DNA from: a virus
DNA length: 56,778 bases
Strand: one strand, 5' to 3'
IMG/VR virus record: IMGVR_UViG_3300010267_000002
How positions within the stretch are numbered: the stretch's first letter is position 1; every line of letters starts with the position of its first letter. A program made the position numbers and the translations under genes. The notes below the pieces were generated by a model. The model ran no database searches and was not told where the DNA came from. It saw only the letters and a list, made by a program, of their open reading frames with translations. Below, in pieces: positions 4,894-40,542 of the stretch.

Positions 4894-4949
4894 TATGGAT
4901 ACCAGCTCAAGATTATATAGCGGCCATGAGCCGCGGAAGGGAGGATATT

Positions 4950-5126
4950 ATGAAAGAGACAACCGGTATCGTGCGGAGAATTGATGATCTTGGCAGGGTA
5001 GTTATACCCAAAGATATTCGACGGACATTAAGGATAAGAGAAGGCGATCCCCTGGAGATATTCATCGATGGAGAAGTAATACTGATACGACGGGCTGAGT
5101 TCGCCAAGAAGGAGGTGATAATATGA
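4950..5126 (+). CDS. AbrB/SpoVT-family DNA-binding protein
   Basis: Motif GIVRRIDDLGRVVIPKDIRRTLRIREGDPLEIF. ATG 4950 lies after GGGAGG. Confidence 0.8.
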   Translation: MKETTGIVRRIDDLGRVVIPKDIRRTLRIREGDPLEIFIDGEVILIRRAEFAKKEVII

Positions 5127-5607: not shown

Positions 5608-6723
5608 ATGAAAAAGATAGAGTTAACTATAGTAAGCGATTATGTCCCGTCATGGGGCATAGCCGATGCTATACGTGAATTATTTCAGAATGCATTAGAT
5701 CAGGAAGCACAATGTAGCGACAACAAGGCGTCATGGGAGTATGACGCCGCAACACAGACGTTAAGTATCAGTAACAAGAAGTCAGTGTTAACTACAAAAT
5801 CACTATTGCTTGGTTCGACAACTAAGTTCGGCGACCCAGCGACGATAGGCCAATTTGGTGAGGGTTACAAAATAGCAACCCTGGTGCTTCTCAGAAATAA
5901 TAAGCCTGTAGTATTCTATAACTACGGGTGCCGTGAAGTGTGGCGGCCAAGGTTTGTCAAGTCACGGCGCTTCGGCGCTGATGTGTTAACGTTCTTTATC
6001 GACACTAAGCACCCATGGTCCAAAGTACCCGACGAGGACCTAACGATAAAGATACATAATATCAGCGAAGATGAGTGGAACAATATAATAGTACCTACAA
6101 ACTTGCACCTCATGACAGACTACACAGTAATAAATGACACTGAGTTTGGTCAGATACTGGACATACCTAGCAAGGTATTTGTTAATGGCTTGTTTGTATG
6201 TGACTATGCAGAGTACACGTACGGTTATAACTTCAAGCCCGGTGTGCTGAGACTCGACCGGGATCGCAAACTGGCCTCAGACTTTGATCTCAAGTGGCTT
6301 GCATCTAAGATGTGGCGTGTGGCGAAGGGTCCAGATGTGTTACTACACGTAACTAAGTTGCTCGAAGCAGGCGCCGCTGACGTACAGTACATAGCAGATA
6401 CCTCCATAGGTTCACTACAGCATATAGCCCGCGAGGCGTACCTTCAGTTCACAGAGACGTATGGCAGCAACGCCGTGCCCGTCAGTAGCCAGTATGAGGC
6501 ATCCAAGGTGCCCTACACCCACAAACCTATTATAGTTAATGAAACCTACAAGCGTGTTATAACGTCATCAACACTATACAGCGCCCCCGAGCCAATGCCA
6601 GAGCCTCCCTCAATATCTGAGAGACTAACAGATTGGCTGCGCAAGTATGGTGATGAGCTATCAGTAGAGGCCTCAGCAGAGCTTGAGGAGCTCATAGAGA
6701 CAATCAGAGAGGAGGGGTATTAA
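5608..6723 (+). CDS. GHKL/Bergerat-fold ATPase-like protein
   Basis: N-box-like AIRELFQNALDQ and a G-box-like GQFGEGYKIA. Confidence 0.6.
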   Translation: MKKIELTIVSDYVPSWGIADAIRELFQNALDQEAQCSDNKASWEYDAATQTLSISNKKSVLTTKSLLLGSTTKFGDPATIGQFGEGYKIATLVLLRNNKPVVFYNYGCREVWRPRFVKSRRFGADVLTFFIDTKHPWSKVPDEDLTIKIHNISEDEWNNIIVPTNLHLMTDYTVINDTEFGQILDIPSKVFVNGLFVCDYAEYTYGYNFKPGVLRLDRDRKLASDFDLKWLASKMWRVAKGPDVLLHVTKLLEAGAADVQYIADTSIGSLQHIAREAYLQFTETYGSNAVPVSSQYEASKVPYTHKPIIVNETYKRVITSSTLYSAPEPMPEPPSISERLTDWLRKYGDELSVEASAELEELIETIREEGY

Positions 6724-6989: not shown

Positions 6990-7155
6990 ATGAGCATTTC
7001 TTCAGATACATGATAGCCAAGTCATGATGATATACAGGTAATCGTCCTTTCAGTATTGTCACAATCTCTACATACTTCAGTATGTTGTCTAATGTGGGCT
7101 TAGCTTTCATTTGATGTTTTGCGTCCATATAATCACCAAACGTAATTGTCTTCAT
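6988..7155 (-). CDS. Hypothetical protein
   Basis: ATG at 7155 lies after GGAGG (reverse complement of CCTCC at 7166-7170). Same frame as the track ORF 6988..7185. Confidence 0.5.
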   Translation of the reverse strand: MKTITFGDYMDAKHQMKAKPTLDNILKYVEIVTILKGRLPVYHHDLAIMYLKKCS

Positions 7156-7678
7156 ACTCGTCAAACCTCCTTGCAACAGCCTCAAACTTCTCCCTGTATT
7201 TAGGTTGTATCTTATTATCCGGTCCTAAACACTTAGTCATAAGCTCCTCCAACATATTTTGATATACGTCAGGCTCCTCAGTTAATTCTAATGTCATTAA
7301 CCTATCGTACTCATCCATCAACTCGTCACCAATACCCATCACCTCAGCAAGATATCTGTCAACGGATGTCTTCTTAGCCTCCTTGGTTAGACCCAGCACT
7401 TCAGCAGCGTAACGTCCCTTCGGCGAGAGACCACAGGCATGCAGTGTCTCATACAGAACCTTGGCTTGCTCCAGCAGCGCAACCTGTTTAGGCGTACGCG
7501 CTTTACTGTTATAAGCTACTGTAACAGCTTGATTGAAGTTTTCACATTCCTTACAGACGGTATGGTGACCTACTGTAGTATTGTAGATTCCCTTGCCCCT
7601 TGGTTTGTAAGGTCTATAACTACTAATTGGTAATAGCCTGCCACATTGTACACAGGCTTTAGTCGCATCCAAGTGCAT
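7133..7678 (-). CDS. Zinc-ribbon protein; paralogue of 4327..4893
   Basis: Motifs CVQCGRLLPISSY...CKECE and C-terminal ELTEEPDVYQ...RFDEYEDNY. Confidence 0.7.
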   Translation of the reverse strand: MHLDATKACVQCGRLLPISSYRPYKPRGKGIYNTTVGHHTVCKECENFNQAVTVAYNSKARTPKQVALLEQAKVLYETLHACGLSPKGRYAAEVLGLTKEAKKTSVDRYLAEVMGIGDELMDEYDRLMTLELTEEPDVYQNMLEELMTKCLGPDNKIQPKYREKFEAVARRFDEYEDNYVW

Positions 7679-8243
7679 GTTTTCGCCTCCTTAACTTCGA
7701 GAGTATTAGGTCTGTATTTGGACACCAACCACCACGTTTGTAGTCAGCTATGTAGTCCCGAATGATTTGATGTAATTCTTCGCATTCTTCAATCGTTAAT
7801 ACATTCATTTTGGCACTCAAGCGCTTATAACGCAAATACCTGTCAGAGCAGTGATTACACACCTCATCAGATCCGACTGGCACAGTTGCAGTGACGCCGC
7901 AACGCTTACATGTAATAGTTTTCTTAGCGACTGCCTGCTTAGCAGAGGCTATTGAGCTCAAGTACTGCTCAATTATCTGACGCTGCTGCCAAATATCCGG
8001 CGGCGCCTCAAAACCTTGCTGTGCTTTGTCACACCAGTACAGTATCTTTTGGTAGTACGTATTTATCGACTTTTCTGAACTTCGTATATTAATGCGACCT
8101 TTGCTTACTTTGTAGCTTTGCCAAGCCTTACCACAAGCTTCACATTTGTCACTGTGTAAATAATGCGCTAGAACATTTTCTGCACCGCAACATACACATC
8201 TACTAACTTCGCGTACTACACGTAAGTCATCCGTAAGGAACAT
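7659..8243 (-). CDS. Multi-zinc-ribbon protein; possibly N-terminally longer (see the ATA-start finding)
   Basis: 194-aa ORF with several CxxC pairs: CVCCG, CEACG, CKRCG and CNHC. Confidence 0.7.
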   Translation of the reverse strand: MFLTDDLRVVREVSRCVCCGAENVLAHYLHSDKCEACGKAWQSYKVSKGRINIRSSEKSINTYYQKILYWCDKAQQGFEAPPDIWQQRQIIEQYLSSIASAKQAVAKKTITCKRCGVTATVPVGSDEVCNHCSDRYLRYKRLSAKMNVLTIEECEELHQIIRDYIADYKRGGWCPNTDLILSKLRRRKHALGCD

Positions 8244-8290
8244 CTTTTGACCTGTCCTATCATTTATACCTAAATATTGTGCTATATCAA

Positions 8291-8312
8291 CACCTCCTGA
8301 TTATATTATACG
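8291..8312 (-). promoter_or_regulatory. Promoter/SD cassette CGTATAATATAAT-AGGAGGTG (minus-strand copy)
   Basis: The reverse complement reads CGCGTATAATATAATCAGGAGGTG. Near-identical cassettes precede terS (13987) and the scaffold gene (18657). Confidence 0.55.
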
Positions 8313-8377
8313 CGTTTTGTTCATTTGTTATAGCTTCAAGTGTAAAAAAAGTTAATCATATGATGTTTGTGTGTTAG

Positions 8378-8604
8378 TGTATAATAATGTATTAACATGT
8401 ATAATTGTGTACGATTTTGTGTATTGTGTATAATTCGTGAGGCCGGCCTTTATATATATGTGTAAAAAATAAAAATAAAATCTGTTATGTTATTATAACA
8501 ATAACAAAAAAGTTTTTAAAAAAATTTGAAAAAACTTAAAAATTAAATTGTACAAATAATACAAAATTATACACAATTTAACACAATTATACACTGATTA
8601 TACA
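8378..8604. promoter_or_regulatory. AT-rich dyad region: 3 x TGTATAAT on the left and 3 x ATTATACA on the right, flanking an A/T-tract centre. Candidate origin or operator region.
   Basis: TGTATAAT at 8378, 8398 and 8427. ATTATACA at 8566, 8586 and 8597. Central AGGCCGGCCT palindrome, plus A-runs and T-runs. Confidence 0.45.
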
Positions 8605-8734
8605 AGTATGTACAGATAATACAAAAAATACATGTTGTTCATGGATTGACTACAATCATATCTATGTGGTAGTGACTATGGTACACTGCGCCGCTGCTTC
8701 TACAATTAAACTATAGTAAAAGGAGGCTTAATCA

Positions 8735-8986
8735 ATATTTAATATTTGGGCCTTTCTTATTATTATATTATATCCTATATATATATACTTTTTTCATATT
8801 TTGATTGGAAAGAAAGAACTTTGTTTGCACTGTAGAACACATGTAATTACAAGGACCTTAGTAGTTATCCAGTCTTCACAAACTCTCAGACCTGACGCCG
8901 CTCTGGATTTGAAGCGGCGTCGGGGCGCTGAGAAGACATCTAGCCAGGCGCTGAGAGGACGCCTAGCACAAGCCAGGTCTTTTTAA
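8735..8986 (+). CDS. Possible small membrane protein with a non-canonical ATA start (very tentative)
   Basis: AGGAGG at 8721-8726, then 8 nt, then an in-frame ATA. The N-terminus IFNIWAFLIIILYPIYIYFFHILIG is transmembrane-like. The stop coincides with a terminator-like hairpin plus T-run at 8961-8987. The track only finds a TTG start at 8801, with no SD. Confidence 0.25.
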   Translation: MFNIWAFLIIILYPIYIYFFHILIGKKELCLHCRTHVITRTLVVIQSSQTLRPDAALDLKRRRGAEKTSSQALRGRLAQARSF

Positions 8987-9400
8987 GGCCAAACAGCTCC
9001 TGTGCCGCGGCGAAGCAACAATGTCACGACTCGCCGCTTCCCCGATCGCCGCTGTGCCGCCGCGCCGCCGCGGAGTCTGAAGCTAGAGGTCAGCCACGAC
9101 CGGACGGAGTGGTATTGTAGCTCCTCTTCGCAGCGGCGCTGCGGCGCCGAAGTACCATGCTGGGAAGGGGTTTTAGCGGCCGCATATCGCCGCCGCACGG
9201 TCGCGGCGGCGATGTGTTGGTTAGATTAGCTGCTAAGGTCCACTGTGGCATGAGTGGCATCGCCCCAGCGCCGCCTGGCCGTGGCTGGGAGAGACACATA
9301 AACGCGGCGACGCCTTGCTCACGCTGGCTGTGACGCGGCGCGTTTCACAGGCTAGTAGGTCATAGCCGGGCCAAGCCAATCTTGGTCGCTGCAGCGGGGT
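8860..9400 (+). other. GC-rich structured island A (non-coding; nested hairpins; motif-family member)
   Basis: Hairpins at 8894-8921 (9 bp), 9126-9152 (nested) and 9185-9212 (11 bp, ATCGCCGCCGC/GCGGCGGCGAT). Core GGGGTTTTAGCGG at 9167. GCTAG(T)AGGTCA boxes at 9082 and 9351. Confidence 0.6.
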
Positions 9401-9401
9401 A

Positions 9402-9428
9402 TAAAAAGCGCCCGCCGGGTGGCGGGCT
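9402..9428 (-). terminator. Rho-independent terminator of the leftward two-gene operon
   Basis: GCCCGCC-GGGT-GGCGGGC, with an A-run on the + strand (a T-run on the minus strand). Confidence 0.7.
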
Positions 9429-9451
9429 TATGAAAGCGAGGATGTGTTTAG

Positions 9452-9628
9452 CTATTCAGATTTGAGTTCGACAATCAGCTTGCTACCTTCTTTGTAGCCG
9501 ATCTGCTTGAGCGTCTGCTTTGGCACATACAGCGTGCCGATGTTTGGGACATCCAGAGGTCCATCAAGGACCTCTTTGAAGCGGATGGTGTTCTTCGTTT
9601 CTTTTTCAAACTCGAAGCTGACTCTCAT
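9452..9628 (-). CDS. Small protein (58 aa) with an AbrB/MazE-like C-terminal half
   Basis: GAGGAGG, then 8 nt, then the ATG. Reads MRVSFEFEKETKNTIRFKEVLDGPLDVPNIGTLYVPKQTLKQIGYKEGSKLIVELKSE*. Below the track cutoff. Confidence 0.6.
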   Translation of the reverse strand: MRVSFEFEKETKNTIRFKEVLDGPLDVPNIGTLYVPKQTLKQIGYKEGSKLIVELKSE

Positions 9629-9631
9629 GCT

Positions 9632-10408
9632 TTACACCTCCTCAGCCTCTTTGTTGCTGATAAGAGCCATTGCCTGTGCAAGCAAGTCTTTGGCATCAGC
9701 TGCTTTCAGGTTGTTGACCTCAACGCCGCTAAGCATCGCTGCTAGCTTCTCTTTGGTTTCATCTACAACTACAGTTCGTGTATCCTTTCGCAGAGCCTTA
9801 AGCTGTTCTTCAGCTGCAAGTAACGCTTGCCATCTTTCGTCCTCTTCGCTGAAGCCTTCTTTTGATTTCATGATGGACTTTTTAGACTGAACGTTTCTGA
9901 TCTCCTTGCGCAGTTTCTCCTGGTCAGCCTGCAGTGCTGCAAGCTCCTCAGCTGAATACTCAACTTTACCAGCGCTGCGGCGATTGCCACCGGCTGTTTT
10001 CTTTTTGCCTGTAACCAACCGAATGAGGTTCTCAGCTATTGCGCCGATCATCATTGTGCGGTAGTTGTCCATTGTCATGACCTTGCTCTTAGCGCGGGAG
10101 CGTTTTGACTGCTGGCTTTTCAGCATACCGTCCAGTGTGGCTTCATCAAGCTCTTTGAGGAACTCAACGTCAGCATCTGCTAAATTGTAAGCCTTTGCAA
10201 TGAGCTCATCCATTGCGCCGTGGTCTGACTTTGATTTTGCGATCAGCTCTTTGTACTCTTCAAAGTTGTCATTGATTGTCTTCAAGATGTCGTTGGCGAT
10301 TGTTGCTGCCAAACTTGTCAGCTGAGCGGTCCCTGCGAGACTTCTTGCGTTGGTAGCCGTCTCCTGGTTTTCCTGTTCGCTGAACAGATTCAACAGTTCT
10401 TTAGACAT
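9632..10408 (-). CDS. Helical protein of unknown function (shares the IRxxQSKK motif with 12946..13461 and 37503..37856)
   Basis: ATG 10408 lies after AAAGGAG. Reads MSKELLNLFSEQ... and contains KLRKEIRNVQSKKSIMKSK. The track start is 10465. Confidence 0.7.
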   Translation of the reverse strand: MSKELLNLFSEQENQETATNARSLAGTAQLTSLAATIANDILKTINDNFEEYKELIAKSKSDHGAMDELIAKAYNLADADVEFLKELDEATLDGMLKSQQSKRSRAKSKVMTMDNYRTMMIGAIAENLIRLVTGKKKTAGGNRRSAGKVEYSAEELAALQADQEKLRKEIRNVQSKKSIMKSKEGFSEEDERWQALLAAEEQLKALRKDTRTVVVDETKEKLAAMLSGVEVNNLKAADAKDLLAQAMALISNKEAEEV

Positions 10409-10504
10409 GGTAATCTCCTTTCGCACTGCACTCCCATGCAGCTGCCACACTGTAGTAGTGGCCAACTTATTTTGTTAAGCAGTAAATGCTCAACTCTTAC
10501 CTAT

Positions 10505-10539
10505 ATTATATCATGCAACTTCGCAGCTGTGTATATGTT
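10505..10539 (-). promoter_or_regulatory. Cassette promoter P1: AACATATACACAGCTGCGA box plus TGATATAAT
   Basis: The reverse complement reads AACATATACACAGCTGCGAAGTTGCATGATATAATATAGG. Confidence 0.6.
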
Positions 10540-10599
10540 TTTGAAAAACGATACAGTAGCTGCATCAAATTTTGAAATCGTGCAATAGCCGCCGTGGTT

Positions 10600-10895
10600 G
10601 TAGCACAGTTAAGTCAGGCTGGGGTTTTAGCGGCCGACCACATCTTCGCCTTGTCGAGGTAGCTGTGGTGGTGGCGCAGCGAAGTCAAGCTGTGGCGGGG
10701 TTTTAGCCGCGGTGGCGCAGCGAAGGCATGCTGTGGCGGGGTTTTAGCGGCCAGAGCCAGCCCTGGCAGGTGGAGGCTCTGCGATGCGGTAATGCGCCGT
10801 CCGGCCGAGGCTGGGTTATTGCTCACGCCCGCTGAGGCGGGCTGCAAGCTAGTAGATCATGGCCAGGCCAGGCTATTCATGAACTGCGCAGCCAA
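10600..10895 (+). other. GC-rich structured island B
   Basis: Three cores (10621, 10697, 10738) within about 2.5 units of a 41-nt repeat. TTGCTCACGC, hairpin GCCCGC/GCGGGC, then AGCTAGTAGATCATGGCCAGGCCAGGCTATTCATGAACTGCGCAGC. Confidence 0.6.
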
Positions 10896-10908
10896 GCTCA
10901 AATTTCCA

Positions 10909-10944
10909 TAACATATTTATTTCCGCGAAGAAATATGATATAAT
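10909..10944 (+). promoter_or_regulatory. Cassette promoter P2 (divergent copy) with TGATATAAT
   Basis: TAACATATTTATTTCCGCGAAGAAATATGATATAATATAAAT. Confidence 0.5.
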
Positions 10945-11012
10945 ATAAATATGGCCGAATATGGCTAAATAAATTATGCAGCTGCGATTCAGCAGCAGAA
11001 AGGTGGGTTATT

Positions 11013-11405
11013 ATGAACCGTTATTTTTGGGACAATGAGAGCTGTGCGGTTCTTACCGAGCAGGAGCTACGCGCGTTTTTCGACAAATTTAGAGAGATTG
11101 ACAGCGACTTCAGCCGTATGTACAGCACGTTTGAGCAATATGTGGAAGCGTGCTGCAGCGAGAGTGGTAGCTTGCAGCTACTGCGCAAGGGTCCAGGTCA
11201 ATTTAATTCCGCCGGCGGTGATGATGTCGGTGCAATATCTCAGTTTTTGGCTTTGCTAGAAGCCATCTGCAGCAGTGAAAAACCTGGCTGTGACGTCAAG
11301 ATAATCGTAGACGGATATATGCTCGAGGCATATGACCATCCAGCGTTGATGCAAGGCTTAATTAATGCGATAAGCGACTACTATGAAGAAGAATTATGCT
11401 GCTAG
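11013..11405 (+). CDS. Hypothetical Cys-rich acidic protein
   Basis: 130-aa ORF. SD AAAGGTGGG. Own promoter and terminator. Confidence 0.65.
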   Translation: MNRYFWDNESCAVLTEQELRAFFDKFREIDSDFSRMYSTFEQYVEACCSESGSLQLLRKGPGQFNSAGGDDVGAISQFLALLEAICSSEKPGCDVKIIVDGYMLEAYDHPALMQGLINAISDYYEEELCC

Positions 11406-11425
11406 CCACTGCGCCGCTAGCCACT

Positions 11426-11455
11426 GCGCAGCAAGCAATTGCTGCGCATTTTTAT
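11426..11455 (+). terminator. Rho-independent terminator
   Basis: GCGCAGCAA-GCAA-TTGCTGCGC followed by ATTTTTAT. Confidence 0.75.
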
Positions 11456-11459
11456 ATAT

Positions 11460-11668
11460 TTGAGCGTGGTACGGCGATGCCAAGTTGTGGCTGGGTTTTA
11501 GCCGCTATTGCATTGCATAGGCGTATCGTAGCCTCGAGGCTATAACTCAGCGTAGCCCAGCCGCGGCAGTATTGCGGTTGCAGTGTTGCTTACGCTGGTT
11601 GTGGCTGCAGAGACTTCCATAGCTAGTAGGTCACAGCCGGGCCAGGCTATTCATGAACTGCGCAGCTG
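11460..11668 (+). other. GC-rich structured island C
   Basis: Core at 11493, then GTTGCTTACGC, a hairpin, and AGCTAGTAGGTCACAGCCGGGCCAGGCTATTCATGAACTGCGCAGC. Confidence 0.6.
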
Positions 11669-11684
11669 TTAAATTTTTCTTATA

Positions 11685-11719
11685 AACATATACACAGCTG
11701 CGAGTCTATATGATATAAT
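11685..11719 (+). promoter_or_regulatory. Cassette promoter P3: AACATATACACAGCTGCGA box plus TGATATAAT
   Basis: AACATATACACAGCTGCGAGTCTATATGATATAATATAAT. Confidence 0.6.
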
Positions 11720-11756
11720 ATAATAGATAGAAATCATATTATTGGAGGGATTGGAT

Positions 11757-12194
11757 GTGAAGTACAAAGTGTTATCGCACACACACGAAATGACTGGAGG
11801 TTACTGCACAGCGAGTATATTCCGCTTGCAAGATGTTACTAATGGTGAGATACTGTATTTAATAATCGACGACTACTGCGGCACGTTAGCTACTGAAGAT
11901 TTTGTTTTGCAAGATGTTGATGACCGCTTTGTAATGATAATTGACACTTTTGAATTTGACACACTGTATGCTAATCACAAATATTTTGATTTGTACAGAT
12001 ACTGCTATAATGAATTTGTCAAAGAGGACTGTAGATATTTCAAATCCACGAAGTGGCTGCCCTACAGATTATTATCTGATAGTCTCCGTGAGCAAATTTC
12101 ACTTGGTTACTATCGCTGGCATAAACAAAATGTTGGTGACTGCTTTGAGACGGATGGTTATAGAATTATTTTTGCAGATGGATACAATAAATAA
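11757..12194 (+). CDS. Hypothetical protein
   Basis: GTG 11757 lies 7 nt after GGAGGG. The track start is 11742. Confidence 0.65.
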   Translation: MKYKVLSHTHEMTGGYCTASIFRLQDVTNGEILYLIIDDYCGTLATEDFVLQDVDDRFVMIIDTFEFDTLYANHKYFDLYRYCYNEFVKEDCRYFKSTKWLPYRLLSDSLREQISLGYYRWHKQNVGDCFETDGYRIIFADGYNK

Positions 12195-12223
12195 CTACGC
12201 AACAAAAATAAATTGAGTTTAAT

Positions 12224-12250
12224 CAGCAGCTAAGCGCTGCTGTATTTTTC
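12224..12250 (+). terminator. Rho-independent terminator
   Basis: CAGCAGC-TAAGC-GCTGCTG followed by TATTTTTC. Confidence 0.75.
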
Positions 12251-12321
12251 TGCAAGTTGTGCGGCGTTGCATTGCCAAGCTGAAGCTGGGTTTAGCGGCC
12301 GGTTATTATCTCGCCTGAGCA

Positions 12322-12687
12322 GGGTTTTAGCCGCGGTGGCGTGGCTTTGCCAAGCTGTGGCTGGGTTTTAGCCGCGGTGGCGTGGCTTTGCCAAGCTGTG
12401 GCTGGGTTTTAGCCGCAGTGGCGTGGCTTTGCCAAGCTGTGGCTGGGTTTAGCCGCGGGGTACAGTCCTGCCAAGCTGTGGCAGGGTTTTAGCCGCGGGG
12501 TACAGTCCTGCCAAGCTGTGGCAGGGTTTTAGCCGCGGTGGCGTGGCTTTGCCAAGCTGTGGCTGGGTTTTAGCCGCAGTGGCGTGGCTTTGCCAAGCTG
12601 TGGCTGGGTTTTAGCCGCGGTGGCGTGGCTTTGCCAAGCTGTGGCTGGGTTTTAGCCACGGTGGCGTGGCTTTGCCAAGCTGTGGCT
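12322..12687 (+). repeat. Tandem array of nine units of about 41 bp (39-41 bp), consensus GGGTTTTAGCCGCGGTGGCGTGGCTTTGCCAAGCTGTGGCT, preceded by a degenerate copy at 12274-12321
   Basis: Units start at 12322, 12363, 12404, 12445, 12484, 12524, 12565, 12606 and 12647. There are four sequence variants. No ORF of 60 aa or more is reported on either strand. Confidence 0.95.
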
Positions 12688-12750
12688 GACTGCAGGCGGC
12701 GGGACTAGTAGGTAGTCACCTTGCAGTCCGGCTGAGGCTGCGCTGTGTTG
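12688..12750 (+). other. Island D 3' module (bulged hairpin carrying an ACTAGTAGGTAGTCA box)
   Basis: GACTGCAGG-CGGCGGGACTAGTAGGTAGTCA-CCTTGCAGTC. Confidence 0.5.
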
Positions 12751-12754
12751 CAAT

Positions 12755-12800
12755 AAAAAAGGACCGCAGCATTTACTGCGGTCCTTTCTGATTATTTTTT
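12755..12800. terminator. Bidirectional rho-independent terminator
   Basis: AAAAAA-GGACCGCAG-CATTTA-CTGCGGTCC-TTTCTGATTATTTTTT, with A-run and T-run on the two sides. Confidence 0.75.
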
Positions 12801-12886
12801 ATCCATTTCTTAAGTTCTTCGAATGTGAATGGCGTGCCAGTTTCCCGGCAGTACTCTTCGAATCTTTTCAGGTCTTTATAGTTCAT
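12773..12886 (-). CDS. Possible 37-aa protein downstream of 12946..13461
   Basis: Reads MNYKDLKRFEEYCRETGTPFTFEELKKWIKNNQKGPQ*. Weak SD AAGGA. The stop lies inside the terminator stem. Confidence 0.35.
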   Translation of the reverse strand: MNYKDLKRFEEYCRETGTPFTFEELKKWIKNNQKGPQ

Positions 12887-12945
12887 CTCAGATTCATCCT
12901 TTCTTTTTTGACTGGCTGGGGCTTTGAAGCCCCAGCCTCGGTCGT

Positions 12946-13461
12946 TTACATCAAGCTTTTCAGAAGCTCGATTATTTTTTCTTGACTTAAGTTTCCTGAA
13001 CTTTCTATTGTGTCGATTATCGTCTGAACATCGGTTTTTCTGACATGCTCATTGTCAACTGGCTTGATTTTTTCACGACGTTCGATCAGCATCTTTTCAA
13101 TCTCGCAAGCTTTTCTGTATTCGTCATTGTCACCCTCTATATCCGTCAGCCATTTTGTGAGAGTCTTTTTTGATTGAATCGATCTGATTGCTTTAATAGT
13201 TTCGTCGTAGTCAAGCTTGTCGACGTCCTCTTGTGTGTATTGTGTGACAGGCTTTTCTTTAGGGTCTAAGAGCTGGCGAGCTTCTTTTAAGACTTGCTCA
13301 TACTTGAGCACTTCGGCCATTTCCTTTTCGTATGAGCTTTTGCCTTTTTGCTTTTTAAGCCGACACTTGACTGACTGAATCCTTTTAAGCTCTCTTTTGA
13401 CCTTTTCTACGTCGTTGTCAAATTTGTTAGCAACTTTCTCGATCTCTTTTAAGTTTGTCAT
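12946..13461 (-). CDS. Helical protein of unknown function (IRSIQSKK motif; paralogue-like to 9632..10408)
   Basis: 171-aa ORF. SD GAGG lies upstream. Charged, coiled-coil-like composition. Confidence 0.7.
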   Translation of the reverse strand: MTNLKEIEKVANKFDNDVEKVKRELKRIQSVKCRLKKQKGKSSYEKEMAEVLKYEQVLKEARQLLDPKEKPVTQYTQEDVDKLDYDETIKAIRSIQSKKTLTKWLTDIEGDNDEYRKACEIEKMLIERREKIKPVDNEHVRKTDVQTIIDTIESSGNLSQEKIIELLKSLM

Positions 13462-13634: not shown

Positions 13635-13654
13635 ATCCAAAAATTATAACATTT

Positions 13655-13850
13655 TTTTGGCTATTATGCACAGGCCTGGCACCGCGGCGCAAGATCCAGT
13701 CAACAATCCGAAACCCCCAAAGAATAAACCAAGCCCAGTAGTATCGCGGCGGCGCATCCACACCGGAAAAATATGGTTAACCCCAAAGAATAGAAGCATT
13801 CTAGCGCCCCAACCCCGGGGCCCCCCATATTTAGGTGGGCCATTAGAATA
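13655..13850 (+). other. GC-rich island E, including a candidate cos region (GCGCCCCAACCCCGGGGCCCCCC at 13804-13826)
   Basis: A G/C tract with a CCCCGGGG palindrome about 190 bp upstream of terS, in a genome with terS-HNH-terL order. GGCTATT and CACAGGC boxes are shared with the other islands. Confidence 0.35.
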
Positions 13851-14014: not shown

Positions 14015-14791
14015 ATGCTTATTAAATGTCCTAAGTGTGGGCAAGAGAAAGAAGCTCATCCAACAGACACCCACCTTTGTGTAGATTGTGTGCATGCTGA
14101 GAATAATCGGCTTACATATTATAGACAACACCAAGGCGACTGGATAGCAGAAGCTAAGGAACAAGGGATAGCACCTTGGTTAATGCAACCAGGCGAAACA
14201 CAGTGGGAGTACACTGTGTGGACAGCTTACCGTGATAGCTACCCAGGTAAGAAACCAACTTATAGCGACGTGGCGAAGCAGTTAGGCACTACCTACAATG
14301 TAGTTAAGAAGATAGCGCAGCGATGGAGTTTTCCTGTACGTATGCAGCTATGGATGGCTGAATGTGACAGAATTACAATGTTGCAGCGCAAAGAAGAGAT
14401 TCTTAGCATGAATAAAGCACATATCGACATGGCAACTAAGTTGCGAGAGAAACTCAACGCCGCTATAGACGCTATCGAGCCTAGCACATTGAAACCAAGT
14501 GAGATAGCGTCGCTCGCTAAATTGTCTGCGGATATGGAGCGCAAGGCTAGGATAGACTCTGAGGCCCAAGAGGACATGAGGAGACAATTGCTTGTAGATA
14601 ACTCCAACCCAGAACTTAAGAAGACACAAACTAAGCAGAGTGACCTCGGCGAAGTGCTGCAGATTCTATTGAAGGCAGGTGCGCTAAAGAACATTACCAC
14701 AATTGGTGTCAAAGAGACAACTACAAGAGAAGTAGTAGCTCGTGATGACGAAGGCAGCATAGCTGCTATGATACAAGAGGAGGACAACTAA
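14015..14791 (+). CDS. terS: Terminase small subunit
   Basis: Position immediately upstream of HNH and terL. N-terminal zinc ribbon, HTH-like YSDVAKQLGTTYNVVKKIAQRW, and a coiled-coil C-terminus. Confidence 0.7.
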   Translation: MLIKCPKCGQEKEAHPTDTHLCVDCVHAENNRLTYYRQHQGDWIAEAKEQGIAPWLMQPGETQWEYTVWTAYRDSYPGKKPTYSDVAKQLGTTYNVVKKIAQRWSFPVRMQLWMAECDRITMLQRKEEILSMNKAHIDMATKLREKLNAAIDAIEPSTLKPSEIASLAKLSADMERKARIDSEAQEDMRRQLLVDNSNPELKKTQTKQSDLGEVLQILLKAGALKNITTIGVKETTTREVVARDDEGSIAAMIQEEDN

Positions 14792-15351
14792 TGGGACGCA
14801 ACCAAAGGATGTATGGAAGCTTTCCATCTGAGGATATTGACGGTAAGCGCCGCTGCGTATTCTGTGGTGAACTTAAGCCACTGAGTGCTTATCATAAGAA
14901 TGGTTATAACCCTGATGGTAGTACTGCGTATCGTCAAGATTGCAAAGTGTGCTACAATATAAGGCGCCGTGAGAACAAAGCGAAGAAGAAACATTCAGAC
15001 TTTATTGGTGGGCAGAAGCGCCGCGGCGAAGTCGAGCCAAGCTTATCACACCAAGAGTGGAAAGAGGTACTGATTTACTTCGGCGGTAAGTGTGCTTATT
15101 GTGGATGCACACCGAAGCGAAGGCAACGACTAACTAAAGATCATTTGCAGCCTATAAGCGCTGGTGGAAAAACCTGCATAGAGAATATAGTGCCGGCGTG
15201 TAGTTCGTGTAACAGTTCTAAAGGTGCTGAGGATTTCAAAGAATGGTTCATGCGTCAACCATTCTTTAGCCAGGAAAGACTCAACAGGATTTTCAAATGG
15301 AGGACAATGATGAGGCAAGTAGGTGAGGAGGGGTCTATCAGTGGAAATTGA
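14791..15351 (+). CDS. HNH endonuclease (terminase-associated)
   Basis: Motif CAYCGC...KDHLQPISAGGKTCIENIVPACSSCNSSKG. The N-terminal zinc ribbon belongs to the CxxCG...CKxCY family. Confidence 0.85.
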   Translation: MGRNQRMYGSFPSEDIDGKRRCVFCGELKPLSAYHKNGYNPDGSTAYRQDCKVCYNIRRRENKAKKKHSDFIGGQKRRGEVEPSLSHQEWKEVLIYFGGKCAYCGCTPKRRQRLTKDHLQPISAGGKTCIENIVPACSSCNSSKGAEDFKEWFMRQPFFSQERLNRIFKWRTMMRQVGEEGSISGN

Positions 15352-16708
15352 TTTGAGCAAAGTAGATAAGGCCACGCTCCAAGCAATGCTGACGCCACGA
15401 TTGACTAAATATATACCGTTTGAACCTACGCCTAAACAAAGTGCGTTCTTACTTATGAACGATTGTAAGGAGATACTATATGGTGGCGCTGCAGGCGGAG
15501 GTAAGTCGGTTGCGCTGCTAATGGGAGCCTTACAGTTTGTAGATATACCAGGATACTCGGCGATCTTATTTCGTAAGACATATGCCGATCTTGCATTACC
15601 CGGTGCGTTAATTGATATATCAAAACAATGGCTAATGCCATTTGTAGAAACTAAAGAGGTTAAGTGGTCTGAGAAAGAAAAGCAATATGTGTTTCCATCA
15701 GGTGCAACGTTAAACTTTGGTTATCTGGAGTCTGCTAATGATTGTTACAGGTACCAGGGAGCTGAATTCCAGTATATTGGCATGGATGAGGTAACGCATA
15801 TTGATCCAGCTAACTATAGGTACTTGTTTTCTCGTTTGCGTAAACCAAAGACATTGCAAGTACCATTGCGTTTTAGGGCCTCAGCAAACCCTGGCGGAGA
15901 GTTTGGAGAGTATTACTATCAGAGATTCTTTGTAGAGGGACCGGAGAAGGGGCGCATATTCATTCCAGCTGGCTTAGATGATAACCCGTACCTTGATGCT
16001 GAAGCGTATAGAGAATCGCTTAATGAGCTTGATCCTGTTGAACGTGAAAGATTACTTAATGGTAACTGGGAGATTAAGTCACAAGGTGACATGTTCAGTA
16101 GACATTGGTTCGTAATAGTCCCAGCAACAGACATACCTAAGGAGGCTCGTTCTGTTAGATTTTGGGATATGGCTTCAACAGACCCTTCAAGGCGTAAGGG
16201 TAAAAATAAGCGCGAACCTGACTGGACTGTTGGTTTTAAGTTATCACATTACCAGGGTATGTACTGGATTGAGGACATCGTTAGAGTACAGAAGACACCA
16301 CAAGGTGTTGAAGAGACTATTAAGATGACTGCCGAACAGGATGGGTATTCTGTCGCCATTAGGATGGAGCAGGAGCCTGGTTCTTCAGGAGCCATAACTA
16401 TTGACCACTATGCAAGAAATGTACTAGCTGGGTATGACTTCGCTGGTGTAGTATCTACTGGTTCAAAGGTTGAGCGTGCCAGGACTGCATCTGCTGCTGC
16501 TCAAGCAGGAAGAATACTTGTATCTAACAGGTGTAGAAACATACTAGCATTCTTTGATGAGGCTGATGTATTTCCATATGGTTTAAAAGATGATACAATT
16601 GATGGATTGTCAGGTGCATTCAATTATTTTAGAGGATCAAATCTTATGAGGGTCCCGACAGGTATAAAAAAGAGTGGTGGGTCTTATTGGACTAAATTAA
16701 GGAGGTAA
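15341..16708 (+). CDS. terL: Terminase large subunit
   Basis: Walker A YGGAAGGGKS and Walker B-like YIGMDEV. GTG 15341 lies 7 nt after GAGGAGGGG; the track start is 15323. Confidence 0.9.
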   Translation: MEIDLSKVDKATLQAMLTPRLTKYIPFEPTPKQSAFLLMNDCKEILYGGAAGGGKSVALLMGALQFVDIPGYSAILFRKTYADLALPGALIDISKQWLMPFVETKEVKWSEKEKQYVFPSGATLNFGYLESANDCYRYQGAEFQYIGMDEVTHIDPANYRYLFSRLRKPKTLQVPLRFRASANPGGEFGEYYYQRFFVEGPEKGRIFIPAGLDDNPYLDAEAYRESLNELDPVERERLLNGNWEIKSQGDMFSRHWFVIVPATDIPKEARSVRFWDMASTDPSRRKGKNKREPDWTVGFKLSHYQGMYWIEDIVRVQKTPQGVEETIKMTAEQDGYSVAIRMEQEPGSSGAITIDHYARNVLAGYDFAGVVSTGSKVERARTASAAAQAGRILVSNRCRNILAFFDEADVFPYGLKDDTIDGLSGAFNYFRGSNLMRVPTGIKKSGGSYWTKLRR

Positions 16709-24053: not shown

Positions 24054-27000
24054 TTGGCAAACTTCGCAAATCTAACAGCACAACTAAATCTTAATATACA
24101 GAACTTTGCACGGAATATGCAGAAGGCATCTGCCTTAGCTAGCAAGTTTGCTTCTGATCTACAGGGTAAGATAAATATTGGTATGGTGGAACCTGCAAAG
24201 AAAGCAAAGTTTGAATTTAAGGATGTAGCGCGTATTGTACAAGGTATCATAGTATCTAAAATTTTCTATAGCAGTTTGAATGCAATAAGACGCGCAACAG
24301 ACGCTGTATGGGAATTTTCAAAAGAGTTAGAGTATGCCAAGATGGTATACTCTAACCTATTTGGTGACACTGAGCTAGCTCAAGAGTTTATAAATGTTCT
24401 TAAAGATTTTGCTGCAGTTACACCATTCTCTTTTAAGCAGTCTGAAGAAGCGGCGAAGAGACTGCTAGCTTATGGTATAGAAGCAAAGAATGTTATGTTT
24501 GTGATGCAAGGCGTGCTATCAGCAGCTACCATTCAAGGTACTGATGCCGTTATAGAACCTATCTCCAGGGCCTTTGGTCAGATATACACCAAGGGTAGGT
24601 TAATGAATGAAGAGATGCGCCAGCTTGCTGAAGCCGGTATACCTGCATATGAAATATTGCAGGAGAAACTAAATCTAACCGCTGAAGAGCTTAGGAATCT
24701 AGGCAGAACGGCGATTCCTGCTCATGTAGCTATTAATGCACTTGTTGAAGGTATCAATGAGAGATTTGGAACTACTCTGCAAGCTGCTTCTAGTACTACT
24801 CAGGGTATAATAAGCAATATTGTAGATAACTCTACAATGTTGTTTGCCGGCATATTTGAGCCTTTTACAGAGTACTTAAGAGGCGCTCTAGGACGTTTCG
24901 GTGAGTTTATTAACGAGCTTAGAAGCATTTACGAGCTGAAGGGTCTTGGCGGTGTGTTCGAGAAACTAATACCGCCAGCACTGCAGCAAGATATAAAAGT
25001 GTTTATAGCTAATCTCAAGATTTTATGGGACATTATAAAGAGTAACTTGGCTTCGGCCTTTAAGCTTCTTGGTAGTCTACTTAAAGGGTTACTATATGCG
25101 TTTAATGCTTTAGCACCAGCTATATATACAGTTATTGGTACATTAGCTGGCTTATTAAAAATTATCACTAGTAATGAAAAACTAATGAAGGGCTTGACCA
25201 CTGCAATATTGGCCGCGGCGGCTGCGTGGGCTGTATACAAGCTTCAAGCGGTTGCAGCAAGTATAACTACTGTAGTAATCAAAGGAATAGTTGGTGCAAT
25301 AAAAGTTTTAGTAGCTGCTATGAACTTTGTGGTGGCTCATCCTATATGGGCTTTATTAGCTTTGGGTGTCGGTATTTTTATAGCACTGACTGGTGCTAGT
25401 GATAAGTTTAGAGATTCTATAAACAAACTATTTAGTGGGTTTACTAAACTTAGTGGTATGGATCCAAATAAAATGCTGCTGCCTGATTCTAAGGATAGAG
25501 CTAGTGACCTAGATAAATTCAATAAAGCTCTTGATGGTACTGGAAAAGGAATGGATGAGCTATCAAAGAAAGCGAATAAAGCTTCTAAGAGCTTACTGAG
25601 CTTTGATGAGGTATTCTCACTAAAGAGCCCTGACGAAGGAAATGCTGCTGATCAATGGGAAGATTTTATGGGCATCTTCGATGGTGCTGGTTTAGACTTA
25701 TCTGATATGCAGATTGAGTTTCCTGATGTCGGAGGTATAGCTACAGACTTTGTAGACAATCTTATAGGAGCTCTTGGTGGTAAAGATAAACTATTAGGTG
25801 CCGGCATAGGAGGCCTACTTGGTGCTGCTCTTGGGACTATAATTGGTGGTCCTATTGGTACTAAGATTGGTGGTATACTTGGAGCTATAGCAGGTTGGTT
25901 CTGGGATGATCTAGCTAAGCAGTTGGGTCTTACAGATGTTGGGGCTATTGCTTTGCCAATATCAACTGGGCTAGGAGCGGCTATAGGCGCCATTGCTGGC
26001 GGCCCAGCAGGAGCTTTAGTAGGTGGCGGTATTGGACTGCTAGTAGGTTGGTTTGTTAATGAGATAGCAAAGGCTTTAGAAACAGGTGACTGGTCTACTG
26101 TTGCAACTGCAGGAGGTATTGGAATAGGTGCTGCTATAGGAATGATAGCAGGCGGCCCAGCAGGAGCTTTAGTAGGTGGCGGTATTGGACTGCTAGTAGG
26201 TTGGTTTGTTAATGAGATAGCAAAGGCTTTAAAAACAGGTGACTGGTCTACTGTTGCAATTGCAGGAGGTACTGGAATAGGTGCTGCTATAGGAATAATA
26301 GCAGGCGGCCCAGCAGGAGCTTTAGTAGGTGGCGGTATTGGACTGTTAGTAGGTTGGATAATAGATAATATAGCAAAGGGTTTAGAAACAGGCGACTGGA
26401 GTATGATAGGGCTCTCTGTTGGTACAGGTCTAGGAGCGGCTATAGGCTTAGTTGCAGGAGGCCCATTAGGTGCAGTAGTTGGAACAGCAATAGGTGCGTT
26501 AGTTGGATGGATAACTGATATGTTTATAGAAGGTTTTTCTACAGGTAACTGGGATGTATCTGGTATATCATTAGGCTTAGGTACTGGAATAGGTGCTGCT
26601 ATAGGAATGATAGCAGGTGGACCTGTTGGTGCACTTATTGGAGGGGCTATTGGTGCTTTGATAGGTTGGCTAGTAGGGCTTATATCAGACAACTGGGGAG
26701 CTATAACTGATTGGTTTAAGCAAGCTTGGGCTGATATTGGGAAGTTCTTTGCAGGTATTGGCGAGTGGTTTGCACAGGTTGGAAAAGAAATAGGGGACTT
26801 CTTTGCAGATATTGGCGAGTGGTTAGATCAAGCTTGGACTGATATTACCACATGGTTTACAGATTTATTAAAGACTATAGGTGAATTTTTTGTTAAGATA
26901 TGGGACACTATCAAAGAAAAACTTAGTGGTGCCTGGGATTCTGTTAAAGAGTTCTTCCAAAATATATGGGACACTATCATAGAAAAGCTTAGTGGTGTCT

Positions 27001-27902
27001 GGGATTCTGTTAAAGAGTTCTTCCAAAATATATGGGACACTATCATAGAAAAGCTTAGTGGTGTCTGGGATTCTGTTAAAGAGTTCTTCCAAAATATATG
27101 GGACACTATCAAAGAAAAGCTTAGTGGTGCCTGGAACTCTATTAAAGAGCTCTTCCAAAAGATATGGGACACTATCAAAGAAAAGCTTAGTGGTGCGTGG
27201 GCGTCCGTCAAAGAGTTCTTCCAAAAGATATGGGACACTATCAAAGAAAAGCTTAGTGATGCCTGGAACTCTGTTAAAGAGCTCTTCCAAAAGATATGGG
27301 ACACTATCAAAGAAAAGCTTAAGGGGGCATGGTCGTCGGTTACTGAATTCTTTAGTGGCATGTATGACACAATACGTACTAAGATAACAGATATGTATGA
27401 CAGTGTTAAATCTGGCATAAGCAATATTTACCAGGCATTTAAGAACTGGCTTTCTGATATGTGGAATAATGTATTTGGTAAGTTCTTTGACTGGATAAAC
27501 AGTGCAATAAATAAGCTTAAAGATTTCTTTGGTCTGAATAGCAAAGCTCAAAATACTGACATTTCGTATGCTACTACAGGCGGATCAACTGGTACGGTAA
27601 CTATGGGGCATGCTCTTGGTGGTGTATTCAACAGAGAACACATAGCTAGATTTGCAGAAGGAAATAAAGCTGAAGCAATTATACCATTGGAAAATGAATC
27701 GGCCATGAAGCCATTTGTAGATGCAGTAGCTAATGGGGTTTCATCAGCTTTAATGCCCCTCATAGCTAACATATCGGTAGGACAGCAATCTCAACTTCAA
27801 CCACTATATGTTGGTACGTTGATTGCTGATGAGAGAGGGCTAAAAGAACTAAGCCGTAAGCTAGATATAATACAGCTAGAAGAAAAAGCAAGGAGGGGAT
27901 AA
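24054..27902 (+). CDS. Tape measure protein
   Basis: 1282 aa with internal repeat families. Position supports the call. Confidence 0.9.
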   Translation: MANFANLTAQLNLNIQNFARNMQKASALASKFASDLQGKINIGMVEPAKKAKFEFKDVARIVQGIIVSKIFYSSLNAIRRATDAVWEFSKELEYAKMVYSNLFGDTELAQEFINVLKDFAAVTPFSFKQSEEAAKRLLAYGIEAKNVMFVMQGVLSAATIQGTDAVIEPISRAFGQIYTKGRLMNEEMRQLAEAGIPAYEILQEKLNLTAEELRNLGRTAIPAHVAINALVEGINERFGTTLQAASSTTQGIISNIVDNSTMLFAGIFEPFTEYLRGALGRFGEFINELRSIYELKGLGGVFEKLIPPALQQDIKVFIANLKILWDIIKSNLASAFKLLGSLLKGLLYAFNALAPAIYTVIGTLAGLLKIITSNEKLMKGLTTAILAAAAAWAVYKLQAVAASITTVVIKGIVGAIKVLVAAMNFVVAHPIWALLALGVGIFIALTGASDKFRDSINKLFSGFTKLSGMDPNKMLLPDSKDRASDLDKFNKALDGTGKGMDELSKKANKASKSLLSFDEVFSLKSPDEGNAADQWEDFMGIFDGAGLDLSDMQIEFPDVGGIATDFVDNLIGALGGKDKLLGAGIGGLLGAALGTIIGGPIGTKIGGILGAIAGWFWDDLAKQLGLTDVGAIALPISTGLGAAIGAIAGGPAGALVGGGIGLLVGWFVNEIAKALETGDWSTVATAGGIGIGAAIGMIAGGPAGALVGGGIGLLVGWFVNEIAKALKTGDWSTVAIAGGTGIGAAIGIIAGGPAGALVGGGIGLLVGWIIDNIAKGLETGDWSMIGLSVGTGLGAAIGLVAGGPLGAVVGTAIGALVGWITDMFIEGFSTGNWDVSGISLGLGTGIGAAIGMIAGGPVGALIGGAIGALIGWLVGLISDNWGAITDWFKQAWADIGKFFAGIGEWFAQVGKEIGDFFADIGEWLDQAWTDITTWFTDLLKTIGEFFVKIWDTIKEKLSGAWDSVKEFFQNIWDTIIEKLSGVWDSVKEFFQNIWDTIIEKLSGVWDSVKEFFQNIWDTIKEKLSGAWNSIKELFQKIWDTIKEKLSGAWASVKEFFQKIWDTIKEKLSDAWNSVKELFQKIWDTIKEKLKGAWSSVTEFFSGMYDTIRTKITDMYDSVKSGISNIYQAFKNWLSDMWNNVFGKFFDWINSAINKLKDFFGLNSKAQNTDISYATTGGSTGTVTMGHALGGVFNREHIARFAEGNKAEAIIPLENESAMKPFVDAVANGVSSALMPLIANISVGQQSQLQPLYVGTLIADERGLKELSRKLDIIQLEEKARRG
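25795..26700 (+). repeat. About six repeats of roughly 144 bp encoding Gly-zipper, transmembrane-like segments (GGPAGALVGGGIGLLVGW...TGDWS)
   Basis: Read from the translated tape measure protein. Confidence 0.8.
26898..27359 (+). repeat. Seven near-perfect 66-bp repeats (IWDTIKEKLSGAWDSVKEFFQN), flanked by degenerate copies
   Basis: Read from the DNA and its translation. Confidence 0.9.
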
Positions 27903-40166: not shown

Positions 40167-40542
40167 GGTATATACAGACGAAGCCGCCTTACTAAAGGCT
40201 GTAATAAGGTGGCTTGAACCGCAACAACGCAACGGTATAAAAGTTATACGTGTCTGCGACAGATACCATTCTGGATACAGCGACTTATTCATATGTGCAA
40301 GAGGCCGTTTCGTGGTTGCCGAGTTAAAAGATGACACAGGTACAGCGACGCCGCACCAAGAGATATTCATTAAAGAGATGATTGCAGCTGGTGCAGTGGG
40401 AGGAATCTGTAGAACTGTGAAGGACGTTGCAGACCTTATTGAAAAAGCTTTATATTGTCAATGTGGCCACACAGGCTCGCTACTTAAGTACTGTGCATAT
40501 TGCGGTAAAGAAATACAGTACGAAGGAGAAGACTATGGATAA
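40150..40542 (+). CDS. VRR-NUC domain nuclease with a C-terminal zinc ribbon
   Basis: Motif SGYSDLFICARGRFVVAELKDDTGTATPHQEIF. Confidence 0.75.
   Translation: MRIDSRVYTDEAALLKAVIRWLEPQQRNGIKVIRVCDRYHSGYSDLFICARGRFVVAELKDDTGTATPHQEIFIKEMIAAGAVGGICRTVKDVADLIEKALYCQCGHTGSLLKYCAYCGKEIQYEGEDYG

Follow-up and report, generated by a model that had tools for sequence, protein, structure and literature searches.

Strictly co-oriented 13-nt cores in GC-rich intergenic islands of an uncultured phage lineage: candidate sites for a sequence-specific reader

The stoperators of cluster A mycobacteriophages are 13-nt asymmetric sites, of which a phage genome carries more than 20 near-identical copies, located in short intergenic spaces and following a strict rule of orientation (PMC9283540). 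A comparable element was found in the phage record IMGVR_UViG_3300010267_000002 of IMG/VR, of which the whole 56,778-nt stretch is called the window here: a core that, like these L5 gp71-type repressor sites, is ~13 nt long, asymmetric, intergenic and repeated in many near-identical, co-oriented copies. Stoperators are, however, single sites distributed genome-wide, whereas the cores are clustered in ~4 kb, in tandem arrays with GC-rich spacers ("islands"). The orientation of stoperators follows local transcription; the cores share the strand of the genes in the cassettes between the islands, yet keep one strand beside a neighbouring operon (the 258-aa gene) whichever way it points. Also unlike the stoperator systems, which have a monomeric helix-turn-helix repressor in a temperate phage, neither such a repressor nor a lysogeny module was recognised in the window, where the proteins of 50 of the ~90 open reading frames were scanned with Pfam (this scope holds for all Pfam negatives below).

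Tandem arrays of ~40 bp lying beside the gene of their binding protein are a known feature of plasmid centromeres and iterons, such as F sopC (12 x 43 bp) and P1 incA. The islands share with F sopC and P1 incA/incC the ~40-bp tandem direct repeats, the short conserved core and the adjoining conserved genes, but no ParA, ParB or Rep homologue was detected, the spacing is not constant, and the replicon type and host range are unrelated. Searching the text of 8 million papers for the motif gave only primers and the operator OB of KorB, TTTAGCSGCTAAA (PMC5577506). The core has 9-11 nt in common with the left arm and centre of OB (TTTAGCSGC, free central base included); since the right arm of the palindrome is missing, a KorB-type dimer site is absent here and the likeness is a lead only, not a test. 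Each kind of known element that the islands resemble departs from them in at least one defining test.

The cores are tentatively regarded as asymmetric sites at which a conserved protein, probably encoded by the phage, would recognise double-stranded DNA, in the manner of stoperators, iterons or centromere repeats. In the region 9000-13200, the pattern GGGTTT(T)AGCSG (TTT accepted beside TTTT) occurs 15 times on the + strand and not once on the - strand, in agreement with the copies and the single strand reported in an earlier note on this DNA:

9168-9180, + strand: core copy of island A
10622, 10698 and 10739, + strand: core copies of island B
11493-11505, + strand: core copy of island C
12288, + strand: degenerate core of island D, with TTT
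12322, 12363, 12404, 12445 (TTT), 12484, 12524, 12565, 12606 and 12647 (ends GCCA), + strand: nine array cores of island D

A scan with GGGTTTTAGCSG, at most one mismatch being allowed, gave 15 matches in the whole window, 13 of them within the same region. Dinucleotide-preserving shuffles contained 0.28 matches on average and two at most, and a chance origin of the motif was rejected on this ground. One-mismatch matches are also present at 1331-1342, within an HD-domain (YhaM-like) gene, and at 46641-46652, outside the islands; the near-match that had been pointed out in the YhaM-like gene is thus real, but not the sole one. The conserved block measures 13 nt, GGGTTTTAGC-N-GC, and is usually preceded by AAGCTGNGGCT. 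The upstream (A)GCTGTGGC previously described as usual is indeed found at most copies, and core and upstream block together span ~27 nt, CCAAGCTGTGGCTGGGTTTTAGCCGC. With Tandem Repeats Finder, the array 12322-12688 was described as 9.0 copies of a 41-nt unit with 92% matches.

The same core was recovered in relatives, namely 81 viral and metagenomic loci (472 kb in total) obtained by pattern scans of viral, genome and metagenome collections. When every locus is oriented by its own cores, 518 exact cores fall on one strand and none on the other, a single strand being used within each locus. In the first 21 contigs, the + strand carries 126 exact copies, 42 with one mismatch and 14 with two; the corresponding numbers for the - strand are 0, 0 and 4. 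A comparison of more than 170 distinct copies shows almost no variation at positions 1-10 and 12; position 11 can be C, G or A, and position 13 either C or T. Such linear, position-specific conservation, with a free position 11 inside a nearly invariant 13-mer, is typical of a protein-contact pattern and supports the recognition motif that had been proposed. The core is kept across phages with only 42-50% protein identity, and the units of one array diverge apart from it.

Four islands are present in the window. Together with their neighbours, they are arranged as follows:

8841-9409, + strand: island A, ~570 nt, non-coding, GC 0.63-0.67, core at 9168-9180
8924-8967, 9315-9324 and 9352-9360, + strand: motifs of island A, respectively the 23-nt repeats, TTGCTCACGC and CTAGTAGGT
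9452-10408, - strand: leftward operon between islands A and B, with the 58-aa gene (9452-9628) and the 258-aa gene (9632-10408)
10590-10895, + strand: island B, three cores followed by a tail with TTGCTCACGC and CTAGTAGAT (10849-10857)
10910-11448, + strand: cassette 1, promoter-like region with extended -10 TGATATAAT, gene of a 130-aa acidic protein (11013-11405), terminator (11425-11448)
11455-11670, + strand: island C, one core, tail with CTAGTAGGT (11623-11631)
11691-12242, + strand: cassette 2, promoter (11691-11719), gene of a ~145-150-aa acidic protein (11742/11757-12194), terminator (12224-12242)
12250-12757, + strand: island D, degenerate core at 12288 and nine tandem units of 39-41 nt (12322-12688)
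12705-12713 and 12730-12740, + strand: CTAGTAGGT and GGCTGAGGCTG in the tail of island D
12758-12787: strong hairpin with a 12-bp stem, an A-run upstream and a T-rich stretch downstream, apparently a bidirectional terminator
12946-13461, - strand: 171-aa gene, all-helical product, convergent on island D across the hairpin 12758-12787
14015-14791: TerS, small terminase subunit
15323-16708: TerL, large terminase subunit, followed by structural genes

Each island opens with a short leader, which is followed by n units and then a tail. The units are formed by the core GGGTTTTAGC-N-GC, ~14-25 variable GC-rich bases and AAGCTGNGGCT; the tails bear TTGCTCACGC, CTAGTAGRT and GGCTGAGGCTG. The core singled out earlier is real, but it is only one of several linear motifs that build larger modular islands common to a phage lineage. 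In the relatives, the number of copies per island is plastic (1-10), and the units are spaced by 34-48 nt, not phased with the helix. The islands are non-coding, with 63-66% GC in a genome of 41.8% GC, and no credible open reading frame was found within them. A reading of G GGU UUU AG as a programmed frameshift or stop was rejected on the absence of such frames and of any modulo-3 preference in unit length (25, 21 and 13 units). Island A is kept at 79-91% identity in 10 metagenomic contigs; its 23-nt repeat, GGCGCTGAGARGACRYCTAGCC (8924-8967), contains CTAG and is present in one to four copies depending on the relative, as another module of variable copy number.

The polarity of the cores was compared with that of the surrounding genes. 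In 40 of 40 loci, the 171-aa gene and the cores occupy opposite strands, the gene always lying beside the last island and converging with it; TerS is on the strand of the cores in 24 of 24 loci and the 371-aa gene in 10 of 10. The 258-aa gene, on the other hand, is opposite the cores in 37 loci and on their strand in five (n = 42), which means that the islands keep their orientation through inversion of the operon. Because the polarity is fixed relative to the 171-aa gene, TerS and the 371-aa gene but not to the 258-aa operon, it is tied to the genome and not to the adjacent transcription unit. In the inverted cases (L002 5930-6709, L022/L064, L080 and L086), the 258-aa gene is inverted together with its promoter and terminator. 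The 371-aa protein (5608-6723) belongs to phrog_6077, of unknown function, is syntenic and conserved in the relatives, and begins with an ELFQNALDQ box resembling the N-box of GHKL ATPases.

No conserved RNA fold emerged. Between the upstream block and the bases following the core, 4.99 of nine pairs can be formed, compared with 4.93 for permuted partners, and contiguous helices average ~2.2 bp, both for partners across the core and for partners within the unit. This permutation test, together with fixed-register column statistics, led to the rejection of a fixed hairpin having GGGUUUU as its loop and of a helix closing within the unit. The 9-bp stem noted in the array of the window is possible there and is not general in the relatives. 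For island A, nine aligned orthologues (79-91% identity) yielded a consensus fold of -150 kcal/mol in the forward and -161 in the reverse direction, with column shuffles between -116 and -123; the two structures have only four pairs in common, and compensatory changes are no commoner than in column shuffles. A global fold of island A was rejected for these reasons: the forward and reverse predictions are unrelated, and covariation equals that of the shuffles. A local CTA-loop-TAG hairpin around CTAGTAGRT, possible in only 97 of 159 tails and with A.C at the flanking pairs, was rejected too; the flanks place a purine opposite C, giving A.C on the + strand and G.U only on the - strand. Local inverted repeats are present in the islands, with neither a conserved fold nor a clear strand. 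What is conserved is hence sequence and orientation and not one hairpin, as had been concluded from the window, and a motif of this kind is most simply a recognition site.

Some of the folding results fit a serious rival, only slightly less probable than a duplex site, according to which the islands would be non-coding RNA modules of the + strand: GC-rich hairpins of no fixed shape would display the A/U-rich GGGUUUUAGC and CUAGUAGAU to bind or titrate an RNA-binding protein or nuclease, in the way of CsrB/RsmZ. GC-rich islands in an AT-rich genome are the classical signature of structured RNA, and variable spacing would be natural for hairpin modules, which would also account for the GC-rich spacers. 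The core U-run is the least-paired stretch of the ensemble folds, and the segments between cores fold better than dinucleotide shuffles, though by only ~1 kcal/mol (-11.1 vs. -10.2, p = 2e-4). The + strand also folds better than the - strand, an advantage that is largely compositional. The cores are, moreover, co-oriented with the cassette genes, and a strong terminator ends island D. As in the CsrB/RsmZ sponges, many copies of a short linear motif lie between hairpins of variable shape, the motif being conserved and not the fold. Unlike these sponges, the islands have no dedicated promoter and follow terminators, the motif is 13 nt long (GGA in the sponges), and no binding protein is known. 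Covariation supports no helix, and the mispairing of the CTAGTAGRT flanks on the + strand and the indifference of core orientation to inversion of the neighbouring operon also speak against RNA. No Rfam family, CRISPR direct-repeat families included, matched the islands at the gathering threshold or at E <= 10.

The transcription signals around the islands bear directly on this question. All four islands of the window are bounded by terminators or by promoters firing away, and these signals, as predicted from the sequence, appear to shield them from transcription. The right boundary of island A is the terminator of the leftward operon (9427-9410), and island B has the leftward promoter (10533-10505) on one side and the first cassette promoter on the other. 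Both cassette genes have an extended -10 promoter-like sequence and an intrinsic terminator of their own. The hairpin at 12758-12787, with weak Rfam matches of the terminator type only, forms the end of island D and also that of the leftward operon converging on it; downstream of the array there is no gene on the + strand. Among 168 distinct islands of the lineage, 105 start a median of 43 nt past a terminator-like hairpin with a T-run, and most of the others appear to be of two types flanking the 258-aa operon. An abundant RNA would be odd in such a position and a DNA site natural. No promoter was found for islands B, C and D; an RNA would arise from read-through of the cassette terminators or from as yet unrecognised island promoters. 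For island A, the conserved TGTAATTAT box is a possible + strand promoter.

The 557-bp stretch at 8244-8800 (25% GC) is kept in the relatives up to this box, which immediately precedes island A. A 10-nt repeat (AAATTATACA, 8545-8605) occurs in it about six times, promoter-like sites are numerous on either strand, and the stretch could be a promoter cluster or an origin. To its left lie two cysteine-rich leftward genes (7133-8243, - strand; 181 and 194 aa) with weak HNH/endonuclease VII-like matches; they may be mobile nuclease genes, since their homologues occupy other positions and orientations in the relatives. At the other side, between the bidirectional terminator and the 171-aa gene, an open reading frame of ~39 codons (MNYKDLKRFEEYCRETGTPFTFEELKKWIKNNQ...) is present on the - strand (~12767-12886); its DNA is kept in the relatives, and a 37-aa gene is called there in the public contig L095. 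Several assemblies among the public contigs with an identical 171-aa protein (L095-L098), one of them 56.5 kb long, stop ~380-480 nt past the 171-aa gene, inside island D, where the tandem array probably breaks assembly.

Bases 1-123 of the window are identical to bases 56656-56778. Given this exact 123-bp terminal overlap, the window represents a complete, circularly assembled (or terminally redundant) phage genome of ~56.66 kb. It encodes a replication and nucleotide-metabolism module (a primase-MCM fusion, an SNF2 helicase, a ligase, RNase H, a YqaJ exonuclease, ThyX and a sigma-like protein), and neither a tRNA or tmRNA gene nor an Rfam family was found in it. A terminase-associated HNH nuclease gene (14791-15351) lies between TerS and TerL. 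Cultured relatives were found neither by DNA search nor with the 171-aa protein; the GenBank collection contains no close phage, and TerL is at most 44% identical to that of any phage there. Other repeats are present in the window. A perfect 24-nt tandem repeat (GGAATGTAGTATCGCTGCGACGCC, 3.2 copies, 36569-36644) is located within an SLT-domain lysozyme gene (36477-37145), and long in-frame tandem repeats (153, 66 and 138 nt) are found at 25998-27321 and 32629-33568, in a 1282-aa protein, presumed to be the tape measure, and a 682-aa presumed tail protein.

A GC-richer patch at 13650-13840, in the AT-rich spacer upstream of TerS, ends in CGCCCCAACCCCGGGGCCCCCC and is a candidate cos site; the presumed position of cos is deduced only from terminase synteny and the G/C run near 13.8 kb. 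If cos lies there, the islands are ~1-5 kb from the end that would be packaged last, and the + strand runs 5' to 3' toward this end, in the orientation required by Chi. The cores could then be polar DNA signals for a translocating enzyme, either Chi-like sites that would stop AddAB/RecBCD as it enters the free right end, or signals by which the packaging motor, or DNA ejection, would be braked or terminated. The absolute polarity, fixed relative to the terminase genes, and the stacking of copies in plastic number would suit this idea, as would the presence in ~40% of the cores of AGCGG, the Chi sequence of Bacillus subtilis. The cores are strand-specific and G-rich like Chi, which acts in one orientation only, and stacked Chi sites near a DNA end would protect it. 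Chi sites, however, are 5-8 nt long and enriched genome-wide; the 13 conserved positions of the core far exceed any known Chi, most cores read AGCCG, and core sub-words are neither enriched nor strand-skewed outside the islands. Nor would such signals account for the remaining conserved motifs, the GC richness of the spacers or the proximity of terminators. The increase in copy number toward cos seen in the window is not general, the last island not always being the largest. On balance, such signals are rather improbable. A broader variant, unlikely in its turn, assumes a cos phage whose last-packaged end is injected first and carries the islands as a polar DNA device: arrays bound by the 171- and 258-aa proteins, or read by a motor, would stop or slow a translocase from one side and would also insulate exchangeable early anti-defence cassettes. 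The candidate translocases would be the terminase as it nears the terminal cos, a stepwise ejection like that of the T5 injection-stop signal, and AddAB at the free end.

The cassettes between the islands encode small, acidic proteins, without a match to a Pfam or PHROG family, and are probably anti-defence genes. They vary among the relatives: 106 cassette open reading frames fall into ~28 families, two of which are common (that of cassette 1, the commonest, occurs in 33 loci) and many of which are singletons. This variability would be expected if the islands were inter-cassette linkers, that is, recombination substrates or self-propagating modular repeats through which early accessory genes are shuffled, duplicated and exchanged, with the core kept by a transmission advantage and not by a dedicated reader. 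Every cassette has its own promoter and terminator, the leader-(unit)n-tail architecture has a variable n, cassette exchange requires direct orientation, and the phage encodes a YqaJ-type exonuclease. Elements with a leader, ~40-nt units in variable number and a tail, lying in intergenic spaces between variable genes, are represented by pneumococcal BOX A-Bn-C, Staphylococcus aureus STAR and the promoter-early stem-loop (PeSL) of T4. These are dispersed over the host or T4 genomes, whereas the islands are confined to one syntenic phage region and their core is far more strictly conserved. Homologous exchange alone cannot keep a 13-mer invariant while the neighbouring bases drift, and the dominance of two cassette families indicates a moderate turnover. 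The islands are like integron attC in that co-oriented sites stand between gene cassettes, but the R and L boxes of attC are complementary, which the 5' core and the 3' tail motifs are not, and no tyrosine recombinase, integrase or transposase was detected among the scanned proteins. A role mainly as linkers is judged improbable.

Two kinds of RNA decoy were also considered. GTTTTAG, contained in the core, is a common beginning of type II CRISPR repeats, and the islands adjoin the small acidic, possibly anti-defence, early genes. The units could in principle imitate a host CRISPR repeat and trap Cas proteins or tracrRNA, the solitary-repeat or RNA anti-CRISPR idea of the earlier note. It is very improbable: the absence of Rfam CRISPR-repeat matches mentioned above is joined by the lack of a conserved repeat-like hairpin in the 13-nt (~27-nt) block and of any anti-repeat-like complement of the core on the + strand. 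The cassette-following islands sit just downstream of intrinsic terminators, not behind promoters, and a mimic should track host systems, whereas the core persists at 42-50% protein identity. A likeness of the tail motif to the Cas12a repeat (GUAGAU) and to the tracrRNA nexus (GGCUAGU) was rejected because the partner stems that these need are absent. One genome per species was scanned, for 185,579 species, for two cores 18-38 nt apart; the only true relatives recovered were small contigs of phage-like character, including one assigned to the bin of an Oscillospiraceae genome from roe-deer colon, although CRISPR arrays with spacers of normal length would escape such a spacing. Host-encoded arrays were rejected: what matched in Poribacteria, Actinoplanes and others was either local duplications with no relation to the islands or coding repeats rich in glycine.

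The second decoy, a mimic of a type III antitoxin (pseudo-ToxI) whose tandem RNA repeats would neutralise a ToxN-like abortive-infection nuclease of the host, has the slightest chance of all. Tandem repeats ending at a terminator do recall ToxI/CptI arrays, ToxI units measuring 34-45 nt as against 9 x 41 nt in the window and 34-48 nt in the relatives, and Blower et al. are said to have described in 2012 how phages expand mimics of the pseudo-ToxI type. No toxin gene is nearby, however, there is no ToxN-like Pfam match, and none of the 185,579 species yielded a host genome with a matching array. The divergence of the array units outside the core does not fit, the solitary copies and the extra motifs would remain unexplained, and a terminator stands upstream.

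Among these explanations, a site on duplex DNA is tentatively favoured because the polarity follows the genome, the islands occupy gaps that seem shielded from transcription, the conservation is footprint-like, and no RNA fold is supported. The core GGGTTTTAGC-N-GC, with AAGCTGNGGCT upstream, would be read as a duplex by a sequence-specific protein, its sites being stacked in GC-rich spacers between early cassettes, beside the presumed last-packaged genome end. Terminators and outward promoters would keep transcription away from these spacers, and protein binding to the arrays would give rise to a nucleoprotein complex that acts according to its orientation in the genome. It might serve as a roadblock, as a silencer, or as a handle for replication, packaging or end protection.

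Candidate binders are the 171-aa protein, the 258-aa protein and, where present, the 58-aa AbrB-like protein. In all loci, the conserved 171- and 258-aa genes flank the arrays; beyond the window, only seven loci yielded the 58-aa gene. The 171-aa protein is 42-94% identical across the lineage, and the 258-aa protein has more than 1600 metagenomic homologues; each of the two forms more than 1000 metagenomic clusters, all unnamed. Their AlphaFold models are all-helical (pLDDT ~78), and they have a weak basic QSKK-type motif in common. A weak AbrB/MazE-like C-terminal motif was recognised in the 58-aa protein by comparison with the MazE-domain protein at 4926-5126. None of the three proteins gave a significant fold or sequence match in the PDB or a Pfam or PHROG family. 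The sigma-like protein (40427-41092), with sigma-70 region 2 and a helix-turn-helix, was considered as well, and a link to the islands is unsupported.

Several observations do not sit easily with a protein-bound duplex site. No DNA-binding domain was identified in the flanking proteins, fold searches being empty, and the 50 scanned proteins include no partition ATPase, Rep protein, repressor or integrase. The unit spacing of 34-48 bp lacks helical phasing. It is not obvious what a duplex site would gain from spacers of 63-66% GC with a slightly raised hairpin potential, and the strict co-orientation could stem in part from an origin by tandem duplication. Finally, the islands may be transcribed, since the TGTAATTAT box may act as the + strand promoter of island A and terminators leak.

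The islands represent a previously undescribed system of cis-elements in a widespread lineage of uncultured phages. The core is invariant enough to be used as a bait for its reader. Finding this reader would reveal what two very common families of hypothetical phage proteins do, and how the early accessory genes of the lineage, probably directed against host defence, are organised, insulated and exchanged. If the cores act on a translocase in a polar manner, they would constitute a new form of phage control over packaging, ejection or end protection.

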